Source: Krischvirus LF73P4. Taken from it: 64,000 bases of DNA. Shown in pieces: positions 18,645 through 40,968 of the stretch. Position 1 is the first letter of the stretch. Every line of letters begins with the position of its first letter. Under the pieces are notes generated by a model. That model worked only from the letters and a program-made list of their open reading frames with translations. It ran no database searches and was not told the DNA's origin. The position numbers and the translations under genes were made by a program. The stretch lies in sequence record OZ035795.1; one strand, 5' to 3'.

Positions 18645-19673
18645 ATGATTTACTACGCAGATTATGAAATAGCGGAAAAAGCCATATACGGCGAACGAAA
18701 TTTTAAACGGTTGCATACTAGCTCATTTACGCTGGTCTGTAGTTGTCCGATCTGCGGTGACTCAAAGAAAAATCATACTCAAGCGCGATTCCGTATCTAT
18801 ACCTATAAGGATAGTTTGCGTTGTGGTTGTTTCAACTGTAACTACAATCAGCCGTTAGGTGAATTTCTCAAACAGTATAAACCGGACCTATTCAGGGAAT
18901 GGCTTATGGAGAGACGGAAGGAACAAGGCGACCACAAGAACACCACGTTCAAGCCACTGAAAAAGGTAGAAAAGCCGGAGATTAAGAAAGTGCAAACATT
19001 GCCTTTCTGCGAGAGATTAGATACTCTTCCGGCTAATCATCCTATAATAAAGTATGTCAGTGATCGTTGCATCCCTCACGATAAATGGGATCTTCTGTAT
19101 TTCACGAGAGAATGGCAAAAGGTAGCAAATCACATTAAGGCTGATACTTTCAAGAACCCACAACCTGAACCGCGTTTAGTGATTCCTATCTTTAACCGCG
19201 AGAACAAGATAGAATCCATTCAGGGGCGAGCATTGAGAAAGGATTACGGAAAGACCAAATATATGACGATTAAAACTCATGAGTTAGCGAGTAAGGTCTA
19301 TGGTCTTGAACGCGCCGATCCGAGTAAGCCAGTGTATTTCTTAGAAGGTCCGATCGATTCATTGTTTATTGATAACGGGTGTGCAATTACTGGCGGTACT
19401 TTGGGATTAGATGAAATACCTTTCCCAGACCAGCGAGTGTTTGTACTTGATGCGGAACCACGGTCTGCCGATACAATGCACCGACTGGAAAAGTTTATCA
19501 ATGCAGGGGAAAAGATTGTATTGTGGGACCGTTGCCCGTGGCATTCTAAAGACGTTAACGCCATGATTCAGGACGAGGGCGCTACACGCGACCAGATCAT
19601 GGAATATATCAAAGAGAACACCGTACAAGGTCTGATGGCTAAAATGCGGTTTATGAAATATTGTAAATTTTAA
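18645..19673 (+). CDS. 61: DNA primase gp61
   Basis: 342 aa; N-terminal zinc-binding CPICGDSKK..H...C..C, TOPRIM-like C-terminal half; follows 41 as in T4. Confidence 0.85.
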   Translation: MIYYADYEIAEKAIYGERNFKRLHTSSFTLVCSCPICGDSKKNHTQARFRIYTYKDSLRCGCFNCNYNQPLGEFLKQYKPDLFREWLMERRKEQGDHKNTTFKPLKKVEKPEIKKVQTLPFCERLDTLPANHPIIKYVSDRCIPHDKWDLLYFTREWQKVANHIKADTFKNPQPEPRLVIPIFNRENKIESIQGRALRKDYGKTKYMTIKTHELASKVYGLERADPSKPVYFLEGPIDSLFIDNGCAITGGTLGLDEIPFPDQRVFVLDAEPRSADTMHRLEKFINAGEKIVLWDRCPWHSKDVNAMIQDEGATRDQIMEYIKENTVQGLMAKMRFMKYCKF

Positions 19674-19687
19674 TTAATGAGGTGAAT

Positions 19688-20206
19688 ATGTCAGAATTTA
19701 ATTCTTGTGCTGGTCTGGTTAACGAAAAAGATATTAACGCGGCTATCGCCGCATATCATCACGCTATTGCAGAAGGTAAAGATCCGTTTCAGGTGATGCT
19801 CGAAATGCAAACTGGTTTGCAGGTTGCATTATCCGAAAAATTTGATTGGGTCCCAAATCCAACTAAGCTAGAGACTTGCGGTGAAATGCTGGATTGGATG
19901 CAACGGATGGATGACGCTATCGCAGACGAAACACGAGAGCTTTACACATCGCTGGGTGGAATGTCCAATGGTAAAGATGCAAGTGCAATCTGGAAAATGT
20001 GGAAAAAGAACCACGGAGAAGCGCGAGCGCGTAAATTCTCTGAACTGTCACCGGAAGATCAGCTTGAAGTGAAATTTGAATTTGTGGACGCGATCCACTT
20101 CATTCTGTCAAAGATGATCCCGCTGGGTATTGACGCTCAAGAACTCTTTATTCTGTACTATCTGAAAAATGCTGAAAACTTCGCCCGTCAAGAACGCGGC
20201 TACTAA
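19688..20206 (+). CDS. 56: dCTP pyrophosphatase gp56-like (MazG-type)
   Basis: 172 aa from ATG 19688; KDP.QVML.MQ; KLET.GE...WM; SPEDQLE.KFE.VD; LYYLKN.ENFARQ.RGY match recalled T4 gp56. Confidence 0.75.
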   Translation: MSEFNSCAGLVNEKDINAAIAAYHHAIAEGKDPFQVMLEMQTGLQVALSEKFDWVPNPTKLETCGEMLDWMQRMDDAIADETRELYTSLGGMSNGKDASAIWKMWKKNHGEARARKFSELSPEDQLEVKFEFVDAIHFILSKMIPLGIDAQELFILYYLKNAENFARQERGY

Positions 20207-20213
20207 AAATTAG

Positions 20214-20272
20214 TTGACACTAATCTATAATGGTTTTATTATGCCTCCCGTCGAAAGATTGGAGGCTTTTTT
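20214..20272 (+). promoter_or_regulatory. promoter TTGACA-N17-TATTAT overlapping terminator-like hairpin GCCTCC-N12-GGAGGC plus T6
   Basis: Hairpin 3' arm GGAGG doubles as Shine-Dalgarno for ORF 20276. Confidence 0.45.
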
Positions 20273-20275
20273 ATT

Positions 20276-20779
20276 ATGCAATTTACACCAGAAGAACTTA
20301 ACATCATTGATGAAGTGATGAACTCTAAAGAAAATATCGATATGTCGATCCTTAATGGATTGATCGAAAAGACTGAGCGGTTAGTGCATCATGAAGCCTT
20401 GTATCGCGGTGTGAGCAAAAGAGAAGGCCGTAAGCTGGATACCTTAATTGTAGGTGATTCTTTCGTTGTAGAGCGTCCTATGAGCTTTACGCCACTGAAA
20501 TCAACAGCAGAGGACTTTGCAACCGATGTTTATGCAACAGGAAAGATTATTGCAATAAAACCTACCAAGCCTTGCATGAATTATTACGAACATGCTATTG
20601 ACCGAGTGGTGTCTAAAGAGTATGACAATCCGACTACTCGACTGTCTTTGTATGCTATGTTGGCAGATGAGCGCGAGTGCATATACAAGACAGGGACGAC
20701 CATGATCCTTGATGAGATCGAGGAAGTTTACGCGTGTAATGGCGAGCTGATAGAGATTTACAAATTTTCTTTAATTTAA
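20276..20779 (+). CDS. hypothetical protein; possible ADP-ribosyltransferase-like R-S-ExE motif
   Basis: 167 aa; LYRG (R44), MSFT (S70), DERE (E132/E134) in the order of ART motifs; weak motif evidence only. Confidence 0.45.
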   Translation: MQFTPEELNIIDEVMNSKENIDMSILNGLIEKTERLVHHEALYRGVSKREGRKLDTLIVGDSFVVERPMSFTPLKSTAEDFATDVYATGKIIAIKPTKPCMNYYEHAIDRVVSKEYDNPTTRLSLYAMLADERECIYKTGTTMILDEIEEVYACNGELIEIYKFSLI

Positions 20780-20840
20780 GTGTTGACAGCACAAACCAGA
20801 TAGACAATAATACACACATACCAACTAAGGAGAATCAATT

Positions 20841-21596
20841 ATGAAACTGTTTGCTTTTAAATCTAACGAAGAATTGGCGCTGGTTGTTTTCCGGCTGAAC
20901 TCTATCATGGCTGGTGCTTCACGTCGCAACAAAGACTTCTCTATGAGCTTAGTCACTGTGCGTAACATTTACCGACAGACTCATTGCGCCTATTCCGGTG
21001 AGGCTTTCGGTGAAGGTGATGATGGACTCTCCTTAGAGCGCATTGATTGCAATCTAGGATATGTTGATGGCAATGTAATTCCGGTTAAACTGAAATACAA
21101 TTCTTTCCGTGGCAATCACACTATCGAATCTCTTAAAGAGATCCAGGAACTAGGAACTAACGGTAAACTTTCTGATGATGAAATTGCCCTACGTGCGAAG
21201 TACATCGAGTGGATCGAACTTAACGAGAATCGCATCAAAAATCAGGAACTGGCAATCGAAGAAAAGAAATTAGCAATCGAGCGCCACAAAAAGCACAACG
21301 AACCTGAGAAAGCAGAGGCAGTCGAGCGAGCTATTAAAAATACTCTCTTCCGTATGGAAGAACGTTATCAGAAAATTGCAGATCTCAAGCAAGCCCTTAG
21401 CGAAATCAACAAGAAAGAAGAAAAACTTAAGGCTATTGCAAACAATACCGAAGTCGTGCTAAAATATACCAGCGTTTTGATTGAATCTCTTTCTAAGTAT
21501 GAGAACTTAACGCCAGCACAAAAAGAACGCGTGAAATACGGGCTTCCGATTGATGCGTCGTGGATTGAATTGATGAAAGCGAAGGTAGGTTTATAA
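20841..21596 (+). CDS. hypothetical protein with degenerate HNH-like segment and long coiled-coil C-terminus
   Basis: 251 aa; HCAYSGE....LSLERIDCNLGYVDGNVIPV resembles a His-Me finger with substitutions; C-terminal 130 aa heptad-rich. Confidence 0.5.
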   Translation: MKLFAFKSNEELALVVFRLNSIMAGASRRNKDFSMSLVTVRNIYRQTHCAYSGEAFGEGDDGLSLERIDCNLGYVDGNVIPVKLKYNSFRGNHTIESLKEIQELGTNGKLSDDEIALRAKYIEWIELNENRIKNQELAIEEKKLAIERHKKHNEPEKAEAVERAIKNTLFRMEERYQKIADLKQALSEINKKEEKLKAIANNTEVVLKYTSVLIESLSKYENLTPAQKERVKYGLPIDASWIELMKAKVGL

Positions 21597-21910
21597 TGCA
21601 TGTATTTGCTGTATGTTATCGTGATAAAGACGGATTCTTTCAATACTCAGTGGACGCGAAGGGTCGCGTCCTAACTTGCGAAACACATGATGCTGCGTTA
21701 GCGTCAATGTGTGATCAGATAGATTATTGTGAGAGTCTATTGGCAGGTGAACCGAAATACAAGGTTGTACCTAAACGAAAATTTGGCATAATCCGGTCTT
21801 CTGAAATTGTTCGGGATGGTATCGAATATAAAATTCCTGAATATGAAAAAGAACGGGTACGGCGAGAACTCAATACTATCTGTGTTCGCAAGGTGAGGAT
21901 TTTAGGATAA
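21596..21910 (+). CDS. hypothetical protein
   Basis: 104-aa ORF overlapping flanking genes by 1 nt. Confidence 0.45.
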   Translation: MHVFAVCYRDKDGFFQYSVDAKGRVLTCETHDAALASMCDQIDYCESLLAGEPKYKVVPKRKFGIIRSSEIVRDGIEYKIPEYEKERVRRELNTICVRKVRILG

Positions 21911-23301
21911 TGAGCAGAGTATTAACTTTCGATATGTTAACAGACGGGCAAAAACATGCTTTTGATGTTCTAATGAAACGCATTGAACAAAAGAAGCATA
22001 CAACTGTCCGTGGTGCGGCGGGTACTGGTAAAACCGCAATGATGAAATTCATTGTTCAGGAAATGGTCCGCCGTGGTGTAACTGGTGTGGTTTTGGCAAC
22101 GCCTACCCACCAGGCTAAAAAAGTTTTGAGTAAAGCGGTAGGTCGTCAAGCATTTACTTTACATGCACTACTGCGACTAAACCCGACCAACTATGAAGAT
22201 ACTCAAGTATTTGAGCAAAAAGATACTCCTAAGCTAGATGATGTTCAGATCATCATTGTTGATGAAGCGAGTATGGTCGATAAGAAACTATTTGATATTC
22301 TCATGAAGAGTATCAACGGTCGAATTGTTGTTATTGCAGTTGGCGATCCGCACCAGTTACGACCAGTTGATCCGAGCGGTGCAACGTCGATCTCTCCTTT
22401 CTTCACGGATGAAAATTTTCAAAACGTGGAGTTGACAGAAATTAAACGATCTAATGCACCGATCATTGATGTGGCGACCGCTGTCCGTAATGGTAAATGG
22501 GTATTCGAAAAGCAGTGCGGCAACGAGGGTGTATTCCATAGCTCAACTCTGCCGGAGTTTATGAAGCATTATTTCGAAACCGTTAAAACGCCGGAAGACC
22601 TGCTAGAAAACCGTATTCTGGCCTACACTAACAAGAGCGTCGAAAAACTCAATGAAATTGTGCGTAAGCGCGTTTATAACACCGATGAACCAGTGATTGT
22701 AGATGAAATTCTGGTTACTCAGGAACCATTGATCGAATATCTGCGAGATGAACGCGGGAAGAAGATTCCCAATGTTATTTTTAACAATGGTGAGATGATC
22801 CGAGTTAAAGAGGTCATCCCGCGCGAATTTACATTACGTTGCACGGGGGTAGATCCGCAACCAGTTTTAGGCTATACTCTGAAAGTGGAAAGCGTCGATG
22901 ATGACGAAGACAAAGAAATCCTAAATCAGAAAGTCGGTTTAGATGCAGTCGGAATCACTACAGATAAACCAGATTTAGTAGAAATCAACATTCTGACAGA
23001 ACAACGTCAGAAGAACATTTTCTCTATCTATCTGAATACGGTCGCCGGACAATATCGCGAAATGAAGAAAGAGAATCCAAAATTTAAACCAGATTGGGAT
23101 TCCTTCTGGACGATGAAGCGTATGTTCTTGAATGTAAAAGCATTACCAGCTTGCACCATTCATAAGTCACAAGGGATCAGCGTAGACCGCGTGTTCCTGT
23201 ATACTCCTTGCATGTGTACAGACAATGTTGACTTTGAATTGGCAATGCAGTTATTATATGTGGGTGTTACCCGTGCGCGGTATCGAGTAGACTATATTTG
23301 A
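21910..23301 (+). CDS. dda: Dda DNA helicase (SF1)
   Basis: 463 aa; F..LT.GQK.AF...MK.I..KKH; Walker A GAAGTGKT; ATPTH.AKK.LSK; KRSNAPIIDVATAVRNGKW; LLYVGVTR.RY match recalled T4 Dda. Confidence 0.9.
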   Translation: MSRVLTFDMLTDGQKHAFDVLMKRIEQKKHTTVRGAAGTGKTAMMKFIVQEMVRRGVTGVVLATPTHQAKKVLSKAVGRQAFTLHALLRLNPTNYEDTQVFEQKDTPKLDDVQIIIVDEASMVDKKLFDILMKSINGRIVVIAVGDPHQLRPVDPSGATSISPFFTDENFQNVELTEIKRSNAPIIDVATAVRNGKWVFEKQCGNEGVFHSSTLPEFMKHYFETVKTPEDLLENRILAYTNKSVEKLNEIVRKRVYNTDEPVIVDEILVTQEPLIEYLRDERGKKIPNVIFNNGEMIRVKEVIPREFTLRCTGVDPQPVLGYTLKVESVDDDEDKEILNQKVGLDAVGITTDKPDLVEINILTEQRQKNIFSIYLNTVAGQYREMKKENPKFKPDWDSFWTMKRMFLNVKALPACTIHKSQGISVDRVFLYTPCMCTDNVDFELAMQLLYVGVTRARYRVDYI

Positions 23302-34763: not shown

Positions 34764-34823
34764 TTGACACCAGAACAAGGGAGTAGTAACATACTCCCAT
34801 ACCAAACAAAAGGAGAATCAAAG
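34764..34823 (+). repeat. PeSL-like cassette B: TTGACA-N17-TAACAT, stem-loop GGGAGTA-gtaaca-TACTCCC, RBS AAAGGAGAATCA
   Basis: About 60-bp module, near-identical to cassette D. Confidence 0.6.
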
Positions 34824-35838: not shown

Positions 35839-36051
35839 ATGAAATCTATCGAGCAAGTAGTAACAGAGTTTATGAGCTACGAAGGAAACCGCATCTTTGG
35901 ACGTTCTCAAGTTCGCGAGATCGTAGAAGAAGTTGCGGGAGAGTTTGCGGAATCTGGTCACGTTATCACGCAAGAACGTAAAGAAGAAGCAGTAAGCCAG
36001 ATCATGGCTATGCAGAAAATGCGTATTAATGCACGAGCGGGTAAAAATTAA
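35839..36051 (+). CDS. hypothetical protein (downstream of repeat cassette D)
   Basis: 70-aa ORF after AAAGGAGAATCA. Confidence 0.45.
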   Translation: MKSIEQVVTEFMSYEGNRIFGRSQVREIVEEVAGEFAESGHVITQERKEEAVSQIMAMQKMRINARAGKN

Positions 36052-36062
36052 AAAATAGTTGT

Positions 36063-40185: not shown

Positions 40186-40968
40186 CTAAACAGCCGGTCC
40201 GTAAATAGCTCCGCGATTTTGCCACGTTGGAGAAGACCCTATAACAGCATATCCAGAATCGCCGCCATTATATTCAGATCCTTGACCACGAATATTACAT
40301 CTACCTCCTGCGGCGCCTACCTCACCACCGCTTCCACCATTATAGATACCGTTCACGGACCCCGAACCGGGCGCATAAAGAGTACCAGCAGTTGCGCCTG
40401 ATTGCATATCAATAGATCCGCCCGGCGCACCAAACGGACGCCCACCGCCACCGCCAAAGGTTAATCTCATTTGTGAAAAAGGAGAATAATACCCGCCACC
40501 GCCACCGCCACCGCCACCTGCAATAGCTCCACCATTATTAATTCTTAGTCTCCCACCAATATCATTTTGAATACAATGCCCCCCGGCTGATCCAGGACCA
40601 TTGCTACCGCCATTCCCGCCACGACCATACATCGTTACGCCATGTATATTCAACTGAACATATTCATTCGGTGTATCTCCGTACATAAAGAATAAAGGAA
40701 CATCTTTAGAATATGATACTAAATCTCCAGTGATATTAAACACTATAGGTGTACTACCTGCTTCAAAGCATCTATCACGGAACCACTGACCGTTGAAGTT
40801 ATGGTCTGCACCAAGTGTATGAATAATTTCTCGCGAGCGACCTGCAAATTGACTCATCCAGCAAGGAACACCCAATCTTAATTGACCAGCCGCTTGACTC
40901 ATCCATCGTTGTCCTGTTTCATTTGCGGCTGAACTTCCAATCCAACCAGGAACACCAACTACTGCCAT
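40186..40968 (-). CDS. 38: tail-fibre adhesin gp38 (T2-type, glycine-rich motifs)
   Basis: 260 aa directly downstream of gene 37; conserved N-terminal part then poly-Gly blocks ([30 protein letters not shown]) separating short variable segments. Confidence 0.75.

Follow-up and report, generated by a model that had tools for sequence, protein, structure and literature searches.

The locus at positions 20,214 to 20,779 of Krischvirus LF73P4 DNA (sequence record OZ035795.1) raises two linked questions: whether its 167-aa open reading frame (ORF) encodes an ADP-ribosyltransferase (ART), and whether a hairpin holding the only Shine-Dalgarno (SD) sequence of this ORF couples its translation to the origin of the transcript. 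Both had been proposed in a preliminary description made from the sequence letters. The window analyzed here is the whole stretch of 64,000 nucleotides in which the locus lies. The genes that define the neighborhood are as follows:

20204-20206, + strand: stop codon TAA of gene 56, within the part 20204-20213
20276-20779, + strand: ORF of 167 aa with an ATG start, a predicted Mod-family NAD+-dependent ADP-ribosyltransferase (RB49 "modB")
20841-21596: Srd homologue, between the mod ORF and dda
21596-21910: Dda.1/Y01A-like ORF, between the mod ORF and dda

The ORF had been placed between gp56 and Dda, and this holds, but it is not directly adjacent to dda, as the last two genes of the list intervene. 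The gene order 61-56-mod-srd-dda.1-dda is that of RB49 and T4, so that the early-region synteny of the Mod family (56 ... mod-srd-dda.1-dda) is present. In T4 the order reads 56 ... modB-modA-srd-dda.1-dda, which agrees with the earlier remark that T4 encodes ModA and ModB in the equivalent neighborhood. While T4 carries a modB-modA tandem, mod is a single copy here, with one tblastn place in each listed Krischvirus record. The gene is already labeled modB or ADP-ribosylase in public records (RB49 and dozens of Krischvirus records), and its annotation is left unchanged by our results.

The enzyme assignment had rested on three short motifs, LYRG, MSFT, and DERE, which are indeed present as L42-Y43-R44-G45, M69-S70-F71-T72, and D131-E132-R133-E134, and which stand opposite LWRG, VSAS, and DEQE in the alignment with ModA. 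It is now also backed by homology, since the protein matched PHROG 832 "RNA polymerase ADP-ribosylase" (E = 9e-21) and BLASTP gave E = 1e-10 against T4 ModB and 7e-7 against T4 ModA. In a 24-sequence family alignment that takes in T4 ModA and a T4-ModB-like sequence, R44, G45, S70, F81, E132, and E134 are invariant, and F71 is nearly so. The codons of the R-S-ExE signature are located as follows:

20405-20407, + strand: codon of R44, the R of R-S-ExE, invariant and aligned with R73 of T4 ModB
20483-20491, + strand: codons of S70-F71-T72, the S-x-S/T motif by alignment; residues 69-72 form a beta strand in the model
20669-20677, + strand: codons of E132-R133-E134, the ExE motif, with both Glu invariant, directly before strand 135-137

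In T4 ModB, the R73A substitution abolished both ADP-ribosylation and RNAylation (PMC10468400). Local Pfam-A and NCBIfam scans of the ORF gave no meaningful match, which is uninformative because the genuine T4 ModA and ModB also went unmatched there. PF26816 (Mod_ADP_RT), which is newer than the local Pfam copy, is a precomputed assignment on homologues at 98%, 74%, 62%, 49%, 40%, and 38% identity. Since phmmer against PDB sequences returned 0 matches even at E <= 10, a fold search was needed. The AF2 model, for which an alignment with the T4 sequence left out was submitted, had a pLDDT of 93.4 and a pTM of 0.86. The preliminary description had called for a comparison of the predicted fold with ART structures, and the model matched only R-S-ExE ARTs: all 50 of the 50 PDB matches listed by Foldseek were ARTs (Certhrax, CDTa, iota Ia, VIP2, C3, ExoT, HopU1), and the TM-scores to phage Mod proteins in BFVD were 0.85-0.93. 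The modeled three-dimensional fold is that of the ARTC/R-S-E clade. From sequence and model together, the ORF is a Mod-family R-S-ExE ADP-ribosyltransferase with predicted catalysis.

The assignment to ModA or ModB is less sharp. In a neighbor-joining tree, the window protein fell into a separate short-Mod clade with metagenomic relatives, the deep nodes having less than 50% bootstrap, and its identity to RB69 ModA and ModB was alike (27-29%). BLASTP and TM-scores were slightly better to ModB-type proteins. The label "ModB" over-states the case, and a more fitting one would be "Mod-family ART, ModA/ModB unresolved". Candidate targets are R265 of the RNA polymerase alpha subunit (ModA-like), or S1, EF-Tu, and trigger factor, together with RNAylation with NAD-capped RNA (ModB-like). 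The window protein shares with T4 ModA and ModB a homologous sequence, R-S-ExE at aligned positions, the ART fold, and the early-gene context beside srd, dda.1, and dda. It differs in having 167 aa compared with 207 and 200 aa in T4, and the N-terminal extension is absent; it is 33-40 residues shorter and about 23-33% identical, depending on the alignment. Bacterial R-S-ExE ART toxins (Certhrax, Vis, C3, iota Ia/CPILE-a, VIP2, HopU1, ExoS/T) are only 8-21% identical to it, and unlike them it lacks translocation or binding domains and would act as a phage early protein inside the infected bacterium. The enzyme would serve early host takeover, modifying host transcription and/or translation proteins with NAD+ as T4 ModA and ModB do.

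Upstream of the ORF, a promoter and a hairpin are fused into one compact element, whose parts are as follows:

20204-20213, + strand: A/T-rich stretch AAAATTAG, after the gene 56 stop and before the -35 hexamer, with a possible UP-like function
20214-20219, + strand: -35 hexamer TTGACA of a sigma-70-type early promoter, from the promoter scan
20237-20242, + strand: -10 hexamer TATTAT, with no gap before the 5′ arm of the hairpin
20243-20248, + strand: folded 5′ arm of the hairpin, GCCTCC, in the discriminator region of the promoter
20249-20250, + strand: predicted transcription start, C20249 or G20250, 7-8 nt past the -10 hexamer
20250-20259, + strand: folded inner stem GUC/GAU with a GAAA (GNRA) tetraloop at 20253-20256
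20261-20266, + strand: folded 3′ arm of the hairpin, GGAGGC, with GGAGG at 20261-20265 as the only SD
20267-20272, + strand: U6 tract, a predicted terminator tail and the SD-AUG spacer

Every element named in the preliminary description was found where it had been placed, including the promoter ahead of the hairpin, the T6 run behind it, and the GGAGG arm as the sole ribosome-binding site (RBS). Its 6-bp GC stem is present as the outer helix GCCUCC/GGAGGC but does not end there: the hairpin comprises six outer pairs (five of them G-C), a C.U mismatch, three inner pairs, and the GAAA tetraloop. It folds at -15.0 kcal/mol (z = -4.0), and 0 of 200 shuffles folded as well. The U6 tract is followed by AUU and then by the ATG at 20276, before which there is no other purine-rich RBS. 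The spacing from GGAGG to AUG is 10 nt, the long end of the well-working range. By sequence and fold, a GC-rich hairpin with a U-tract directly after it has the form of an intrinsic terminator; a consensus terminator scan missed it because the hairpin interior was counted as a 12-nt loop. An Rfam scan of 19600-21000 gave just two sub-threshold chance matches and no known RNA family.

The promoter, TTGACA-17-TATTAT, agrees with the consensus at 11 of 12 positions, has a 17-nt spacer, and was the joint best match in a 7-kb scan. The sequence TATAAT at 20226-20231 was rejected as a -10 box, being only 6 nt from TTGACA and without a -35 of its own. The usual distance from the -10 hexamer to +1 is 7-8 nt. 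With the 5′ arm directly behind the -10 hexamer, the predicted +1 falls inside the hairpin, and since this arm fills the discriminator region, it is predicted to be absent from the RNA made by the promoter itself. RNA from this predicted start would be unstructured (-2.3 kcal/mol, z = +1.5), while in the read-through RNA the whole GGAGG is paired in both the predicted minimum free energy and centroid folds. A literature search found no genome-wide start-site dataset for T4 or RB49.

The combination is rare in the window. The pattern TTGACA-N16-18-TANNNT-GCCNCC occurs once, compared with 0.00 expected from shuffles. When ATG starts of ORFs of at least 40 aa were scanned over the 64 kb for hairpins of at least 5 bp with at least four G-C pairs, mod was the sole start with its SD core in the 3′ arm. 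Among 76 SD-bearing starts, two others have a fully paired SD (4401, + strand; 40968, - strand), in weak A-U/G-U helices rather than a GC stem. Outside the window, a DNA pattern scan of viral contigs for a GC hairpin with a GGNGG 3′ arm, a T-run, and ATG gave at least 120 matches, mostly in unrelated phages, and 37 of the matches listed were followed by an ORF of at least 50 aa. The layout with a terminator arm as SD is common there and is not confined to the mod gene.

The nearest published counterparts are the promoter-early stem-loop (PeSL) cassettes of RB49 and phi1 (Arbiol et al., 2010, PMC2839356; Comeau et al., 2014, PMC4122927), which belong to the same phage group. [quoted passage not shown] The mod element resembles them in its AT-rich tract, a promoter close to the near-consensus TTGACA-N17-TATAAT form, and a stable stem-loop followed by SD and ATG: the tract AAAAATTAG lies upstream of a near-consensus sigma-70 promoter, and the stem begins at the very next position past the -10 hexamer, while the SD and ATG stand at its 3′ end. 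It departs from the consensus stem G(n)-loop-C(n) (PMC4122927), as the C-rich arm comes first (GCCTCC...GGAGGC), whereas the window holds at least nine other PeSL-like elements, nine promoter-associated stems having the G-rich arm first. Two further differences are that the mod 3′ arm is itself the SD, with the U-tract after it, and that the element lies between conserved genes (56 and mod/srd), not among ORFans. Promoter and terminator activity was demonstrated by lacZ fusions for other PeSLs only, and one such stem-loop, different from that of mod, equaled rrnB T1 in termination (PMC2839356). Neither paper discusses masking of translation, and the word "translation" is absent from PMC4122927. 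As judged from its sequence, the mod promoter-hairpin fits an atypical PeSL with reversed stem polarity.

Taken together, we favor, with a probability of roughly 0.7, the reading that this RB49-like Krischvirus carries a single Mod R-S-ExE mono-ADP-ribosyltransferase, predicted to be active, behind an atypical PeSL signal that would gate it through its own promoter. RNA polymerase arriving from genes 61/56 would transcribe the entire hairpin and either terminate there or produce a read-through RNA with its sole SD, GGAGG, base-paired. Transcripts from the mod promoter would start about 7 nt past the -10 hexamer, inside the hairpin, and hence lack the 5′ arm, escape self-termination, and expose the SD. 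With the hairpin placed in this way, only the transcript of the mod promoter is probably translatable, which would make Mod synthesis depend on how active its own immediate-early promoter is. Efficient termination would leave little read-through RNA to mask, and this counts against gating.

To follow the element beyond the window, six relatives with 38-74% protein identity were compared, giving seven loci in total. The diverged relatives came from an exhaustive representative search and exact-sequence contig look-ups; a word-index homologue search had yielded only three proteins and a viral-contig protein scan only three loci. All seven loci have a -10 hexamer, a gap of 0-2 nt, a hairpin (-13.6 to -18.9 kcal/mol), and a run of U5-7, and the internal-promoter geometry of the window (-10 ending at 20242, arm at 20243-20248, start site predicted) is kept in 7 of 7. 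The -35 hexamer TTGACA is invariant in five relatives (L003, L004, L007, L008, L010), and the GNRA form of the loop is kept, since the loop of L004 is GAGA. The gene upstream of mod varies among the loci, being the gp56 dCTPase, a Mom-like gene, or an N6/N4 methyltransferase. In the six loci whose 3′ arm is the SD, 93% of the stem cells pair, compared with 33-58% when the partner is slid. Compensatory stem changes occur among the five relatives of this kind, this covariation resting on 6 sequences: alignment columns 10/30 pair as U-A (three), C-G (two), or A-U (one), and the changed pair turns the SD into GGGGG or GGUGG. In the most distant relative, L010, the promoter, hairpin, and U-run are kept and a separate SD, GGGAG, follows; the SD-in-arm layout is therefore not obligatory. 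The earlier suggestion that the hairpin could couple translation to transcript origin gains support from the predicted start within the hairpin and from these compensatory changes.

Hairpin gating by an internal promoter has a precedent in T4, where translation of e, soc, 49, and I-TevI takes place only on RNAs from promoters that lie within a hairpin masking the TIR (PMC3014915). In long transcripts from upstream, a helix covers the SD and/or AUG of these genes, while a promoter in the 5′ part of the helix gives a shorter RNA, free of the inhibitory arm, on which translation proceeds (PMC3014915). The mod locus is similar in that its SD is paired in the predicted read-through RNA. It differs in that the internal promoter of the T4 genes is late (gp55, TATAAATA) and delays expression, whereas that of mod, and of T4-type modB, is a sigma-70 early promoter; the late-promoter motif TATAAATA is absent from the mod promoter. 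An early internal promoter would confine expression to the immediate-early period. The mod hairpin is additionally a predicted terminator, unlike those of e, soc, 49, and I-TevI.

The T4-type mod genes themselves carry a related structure. In T4, RB69, MX01, STP4-a, Marfa, X20, and PEi26, a hairpin of -18 to -23 kcal/mol stands at the first or only mod copy, with shuffle z values of about -5 to -7.5 for T4, Marfa, X20, and PEi26. Its 5′ arm overlaps the -10 hexamer of the gene's own early promoter, its 3′ arm pairs with the SD and AUG, and a masking structure of this kind is absent at most neighboring genes. We tentatively propose, at somewhat less than even odds, one rule for the Mod ARTs of T4-like phages, of which the hairpin studied here would be one implementation. 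Under this rule the RBS of the first or only mod gene is hairpin-locked, and the 5′ arm of the hairpin is buried in the -10/discriminator region of mod's own early promoter. The rule would span eight genera or more (Krischvirus plus Tequatro-, Mosig-, Dhaka-, Gelderland-, Marfa-, Winkler-, and Kanagawavirus). No description of such a rule was found in the literature, and the conservation of the hairpin at mod genes is possibly the sole unreported element of this analysis.

The strongest competing explanation is that the hairpin does no more than end transcription of the gene 61/56 unit as an intrinsic terminator and that genome compaction has left the SD in its arm with no selected gating. In its favor, a GC stem with U6 behind it is the classical form of a terminator, efficient termination is documented for PeSL stem-loops (PMC2839356), unrelated viral contigs often show a terminator arm used as SD, and L010 kept the hairpin with a separate SD. 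Against this, the T4-type mod hairpins of seven genera pair the SD and AUG and overlap their own -10 hexamer without having a U-run, so the predicted masking of the mod start is conserved independently of termination. In addition, the stem changes that weaken the SD to GGUGG or GGGGG are tolerated where pairing is kept. We regard a terminator without gating as unlikely.

Somewhat less probable still is that the hairpin is conserved mainly as a recombination module at the DNA level, a PeSL "mobile regulatory cassette", rather than for control at the RNA level. In RB49/phi1, modular shuffling and the formation of mini-circles are mediated by PeSLs (PMC2839356, PMC4122927), and among the relatives the promoter-hairpin stays with mod whichever of three genes lies upstream. 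Yet recombination homology requires neither base-pair covariation nor a fixed gap of 0-2 nt between the -10 hexamer and the stem, and the mod stem, whose polarity is opposite to that of the G-run/C-run PeSLs of the window, would for this reason be a poor homology partner for them. A role in recombination would in any case be compatible with gating by the mod promoter and not exclusive of it.

It is improbable that the GGAG sequence acts as a RegB processing switch, by which the unstructured mod RNA would be quickly inactivated and the hairpin RNAs protected. RegB, a conserved enzyme of T4-type phages, RB49 among them, cuts GGAG in the SDs of early genes (PMC3014915), and the SD of mod would be single-stranded only in the predicted promoter-proximal transcript, but the relatives with GGGGG or GGUGG lose the RegB motif and keep the hairpin. 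It is hardly credible that the protein has an ART fold but is degenerate or non-catalytic and serves some other role: its shortness, low identity to T4 ModA/ModB, and lack of a local Pfam or NCBIfam match speak for this reading, but T4 ModA and ModB go unmatched as well, the catalytic positions are all invariant, the model is confidently an ART, and the missing residues are N-terminal, outside the catalytic core.

The preferred reading, a Mod enzyme gated by its own promoter, links two literatures, those of the PeSL promoter-terminator cassettes and of the hairpin-gated late genes of T4, a gain of modest value. It also matters to those who express or engineer modB for use in RNAylation, since clones that carry upstream sequence would be silent in translation. 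Mod enzymes are highly toxic when cloned (PMC2988021). The findings suggest that in many T4-like genera RNA structure restricts these toxic enzymes to a short immediate-early period. If the rule proposed for Mod ARTs is true, only immediate-early, promoter-proximal transcripts would give rise to toxic Mod, and none would come from delayed-early or middle read-through RNA crossing the gene. T4 ModA down-tunes UP-element-dependent early promoters, and if the enzyme studied here did the same, its synthesis would amount to a self-limiting pulse.

The segment at 19600-22000 shares 98.8-99.3% identity with RB49 and further members of Krischvirus (PHB13, E26). The RB49 annotation names the corresponding genes as 61 (primase), 56 (dCTPase), modB, srd, a hypothetical ORF, and dda. 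Profile searches of the neighboring genes were consistent with this annotation:

19682-20206, dUTPase_2/NTP pyrophosphohydrolase
20276-20779, + strand, mod ORF (167 aa)
20841-21596, + strand, Srd (PHROG 1400, E = 3e-73)
21596-21910, Y01A/Dda.1 family
21910-23301, Dda helicase

The preliminary description had placed the ORF between gp56 and Dda, but Srd and the Dda.1-like ORF separate it from dda. A second promoter, TTGACA-17-AATAAT (20783-20811, + strand, 11/12 match), begins 4 nt past the stop codon of mod and drives the srd gene. Since it has no hairpin (local fold -2.7 kcal/mol), mod transcripts should continue into srd, dda.1, and dda. The N-terminal part of the Srd homologue (around residues 20-100) also matched PHROG 4592, "decoy of host sigma70", as well as the HNH/endonuclease VII PHROGs 3118 (2e-12), 3322 (2e-10), and 1035 (6e-5), a similarity hinting that Srd is derived from an HNH-type domain.

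The ORF had been proposed as an ADP-ribosyltransferase (ART) based on three motifs, L42-Y43-R44-G45, M69-S70-F71-T72, and D131-E132-R133-E134, and this assignment was borne out by PHROG 832, "RNA polymerase ADP-ribosylase" (E = 9e-21), by BLASTP matches to T4 ModB (33% identity over 113 aa, E = 1e-10) and T4 ModA (24% over 159 aa, E = 7e-7), and by the register of the ModA alignment, which paired LYRG with LWRG, MSFT with VSAS, and DERE with DEQE. Precomputed annotations placed Pfam PF26816 (Mod_ADP_RT) on homologues with 98%, 74%, 62%, 49%, 40%, and 38% identity. The local Pfam and NCBIfam copies returned nothing for the mod ORF, which is uninformative because T4 ModA and ModB were likewise unmatched there. 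An exhaustive profile search yielded 23 representative homologous proteins, and M1, R44, G45, S70, F81, E132, and E134 were invariant in an alignment of 24 sequences, among them T4 ModA and a T4-ModB-like protein. R44 aligned with R73 of T4 ModB, a residue needed for ADP-ribosylation and RNAylation alike (PMC10468400).

The AlphaFold2 model (23 input sequences) had a pLDDT of 93.4 and a pTM of 0.86, with R44 and S70 predicted on strands and the ExE motif directly before strand 135-137. In a Foldseek search against the PDB, all 50 matches listed were ART toxins with the R-S-ExE catalytic signature, while among viral models the TM-scores were 0.91-0.93 for modB-type proteins and 0.85 for a ModA. 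The predicted fold is therefore of the ART type, and the refuting outcome named in the preliminary description, a non-ART fold, did not occur. Judged by sequence and predicted structure, the protein is already known and correctly annotated as belonging to the Mod ART family; its activity is predicted. The tblastn searches placed a single mod gene in the listed Krischvirus records, but two each in T4, RB69, and MX01. In a neighbor-joining tree whose deep nodes had bootstrap values below 50%, the window Mod and its metagenomic relatives formed a separate clade of short Mods (161-176 aa), and RB69 ModA and RB69 ModB were equally close to the window Mod (27-29% identity). The GenBank name "ModB" is a best-hit label, and the sequence does not reveal target specificity.

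Upstream of the mod ORF, the following elements were found:

20214-20219, + strand, -35 hexamer TTGACA
20237-20242, + strand, -10 hexamer TATTAT, 17 nt from TTGACA
20267-20272, + strand, U6 tract, with AUU and then AUG downstream

The hexamers jointly matched 11/12 positions, the joint best match in a 7-kb scan, in which weaker promoter-like matches were not commoner than in shuffles. Directly 3' of the -10 hexamer, the RNA would fold as GCCUCC-C-GUC-GAAA-GAU-U-GGAGGC, in which a mismatch separates six outer pairs from three inner pairs capped by a GNRA tetraloop (-15.0 kcal/mol, z = -4.0; 0/200 shuffles as stable). All elements of the earlier reading, a promoter followed by a 6-bp GC hairpin and T6, were present, although the stem extends beyond 6 bp. 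The GGAGG of the 3' arm was indeed the only ribosome-binding site, there being no other purine-rich element 5' of the start codon. The observation, including the buried Shine-Dalgarno (SD) sequence, is confirmed with two corrections, to the stem length and to the position relative to dda. Across all ATG starts of ORFs of at least 40 aa in the 64-kb window, a strict scan found the SD core within a GC hairpin's 3' arm at mod alone; fully paired SDs at two other starts (4401, + strand, and 40968, - strand) lay in weak A-U/G-U helices. The composite pattern of promoter and arm occurred once in the window versus 0.00 expected. No Rfam family matched the mod region.

Transcription normally starts 7-8 nt 3' of the -10 hexamer. 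With the last base of this hexamer at 20242 and the 5' arm at 20243-20248, the predicted start (20249/20250) lies inside the hairpin. From the sequence and the predicted folds, we infer the start site, termination, and masking as follows. RNA started at mod's own promoter would be missing the 5' arm, would not terminate itself, and would leave the SD free; the predicted transcript was near-unstructured (-2.3 kcal/mol, z = +1.5). RNA arriving from genes 61/56 would carry the complete hairpin and U-tract and would terminate, and GGAGG would be paired in any read-through copy. The T4 genes e, soc, 49, and I-TevI provide a precedent: their translation starts are masked in long early transcripts, and translatable RNA comes from a promoter situated within the helix (PMC3014915). 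The logic is shared, but the internal promoter is early at mod, not late. The mod element most likely works like these classic T4 hairpin-gated starts. Near 40968 (- strand), at the start of a 260-aa gene, the SD UUUGGAG pairs into a stretch that prolongs a terminator-like GGGGGC...GCCCCC hairpin (-18 kcal/mol), and a TATAAAT motif resembling a late promoter lies between hairpin and AUG. This may be a further case of a promoter within a hairpin, here of the type classic for late genes.

Promoter-early stem-loops (PeSLs), defined in phages RB49 and phi1, comprise an AT-rich tract, a near-consensus sigma-70 promoter, and a stable stem-loop, then SD and ATG, the stem-loop acting as a terminator or attenuator of upstream transcription (PMC2839356). 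A survey of the window revealed at least nine other promoter-associated GC stems:

4347, 9138, 11164, 13893, 15204, 27052, 27421, 34764, and 36062, + strand, PeSL-like elements

Each of the nine combines a near-consensus sigma-70 promoter with a GC stem-loop that lies between the hexamers, overlaps them, or follows shortly after, and the G-rich arm always comes first, in agreement with the published stem consensus G(n)-loop-C(n) (PMC4122927). Several stems were near-identical, with GGGAGTAGTAA[CG]ATACTCCC at 34764, at 36062, and also 5' of the start at 35839. The mod upstream element is a member of this published class, but of unusual polarity, with the C-rich arm first, and only this polarity permits the 3' arm to be used as an SD.

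Six further loci were obtained by exact-sequence look-up, with Mod identities to the window of 74%, 74%, 62%, 49%, 40%, and 38%. All six have a strong promoter (9-12/12 positions), a gap of 0-2 nt from the -10 hexamer to the hairpin, a hairpin of -13.6 to -18.9 kcal/mol, and U5-7 thereafter. Depending on the locus, the gene 5' of the cassette encodes gp56, a Mom-like protein, or an N6/N4 methyltransferase; in two of the more distant relatives it is not gene 56:

L009:72-746, locus with a Mom-like gene (PF25680)
L010:497-1126 and L010:1626-2432, locus with an N6/N4 DNA methyltransferase

Because the upstream gene differs between loci, the promoter-hairpin element travels with mod. In L009 and L010, Y01A/Dda.1 and Dda lie downstream as usual and srd is absent, a layout consistent with PeSL-bounded shuffling. 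In five of the six relatives, as in the window, the 3' arm is the only SD; there it reads GGAGG, GGGGG, or GGUGG, and the 5' arm co-varies as GCCUCC, GCCCCC/GCCCUC, or GCCACC. In a six-sequence alignment, 93% of stem cells were paired versus 33-58% at slid registers, and one stem pair varied among U-A (3), C-G (2), and A-U (1), a small covariation sample. The most distant relative, L010, kept the promoter, hairpin, and U-run and has a separate SD farther 3'; placement of the SD in the arm is therefore not obligatory but a derived compaction.

Unrelated viral contigs commonly contained a T-run and an ATG behind a GC hairpin whose 3' arm is GGNGG, with at least 120 matches. Among the matches listed, 37 preceded an ORF of at least 50 aa, and five of these had adjacent promoter-like hexamers, only one of the five being a Mod. 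The overlap of terminator arm and SD alone is ordinary genome economy. A -10-like box abutting a GCCNCC...GGNGGC hairpin, T-run, and ATG was found before non-Mod ORFs in unrelated viral contigs:

L102, - strand, match at 1028
L027
L028
L130

The promoter-abutting design therefore recurs beyond mod genes. One example, before a 237-aa ORF, reads GTTTACA...TACAAT-GCCTCC...GGGGGC-TTTTTT-ATG.

An analogous design was present at the first or only mod gene of T4, RB69, MX01, STP4-a, Marfa, X20, and PEi26:

L001:4620-4700, - strand, T4 modB leader
L011:1444, L012:790, L013:1411, L134:554, L135:512, and L136:551, further T4-type mod leaders

All carry an early promoter of the T4 type (GTTTAC-17/18-TATGAT or close variants), whose -10 box contributes to the 5' arm of a hairpin of -18 to -23 kcal/mol (z of about -5 to -7.5 against shuffles, computed for T4, Marfa, X20, and PEi26). 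The 3' arm pairs both GGAGG and the AUG, and there is no U-run. Neighboring starts (srd, dmd, modA.2, and the second modA-type copy) were mostly unstructured, the sole exception being PEi26 srd, which has a stem but one that leaves the SD unpaired. No description of hairpin gating at mod leaders was found in T4 reviews or the ModB paper, within incomplete literature coverage, and the apparent family-wide link of hairpin gating with mod genes may be the sole new element here. Across eight genera (Krischvirus and Tequatro-, Mosig-, Dhaka-, Gelderland-, Marfa-, Winkler-, and Kanagawavirus), and independently of termination, it therefore appears to be a conserved feature that mod has its translation start masked by a hairpin rooted in its own early promoter.
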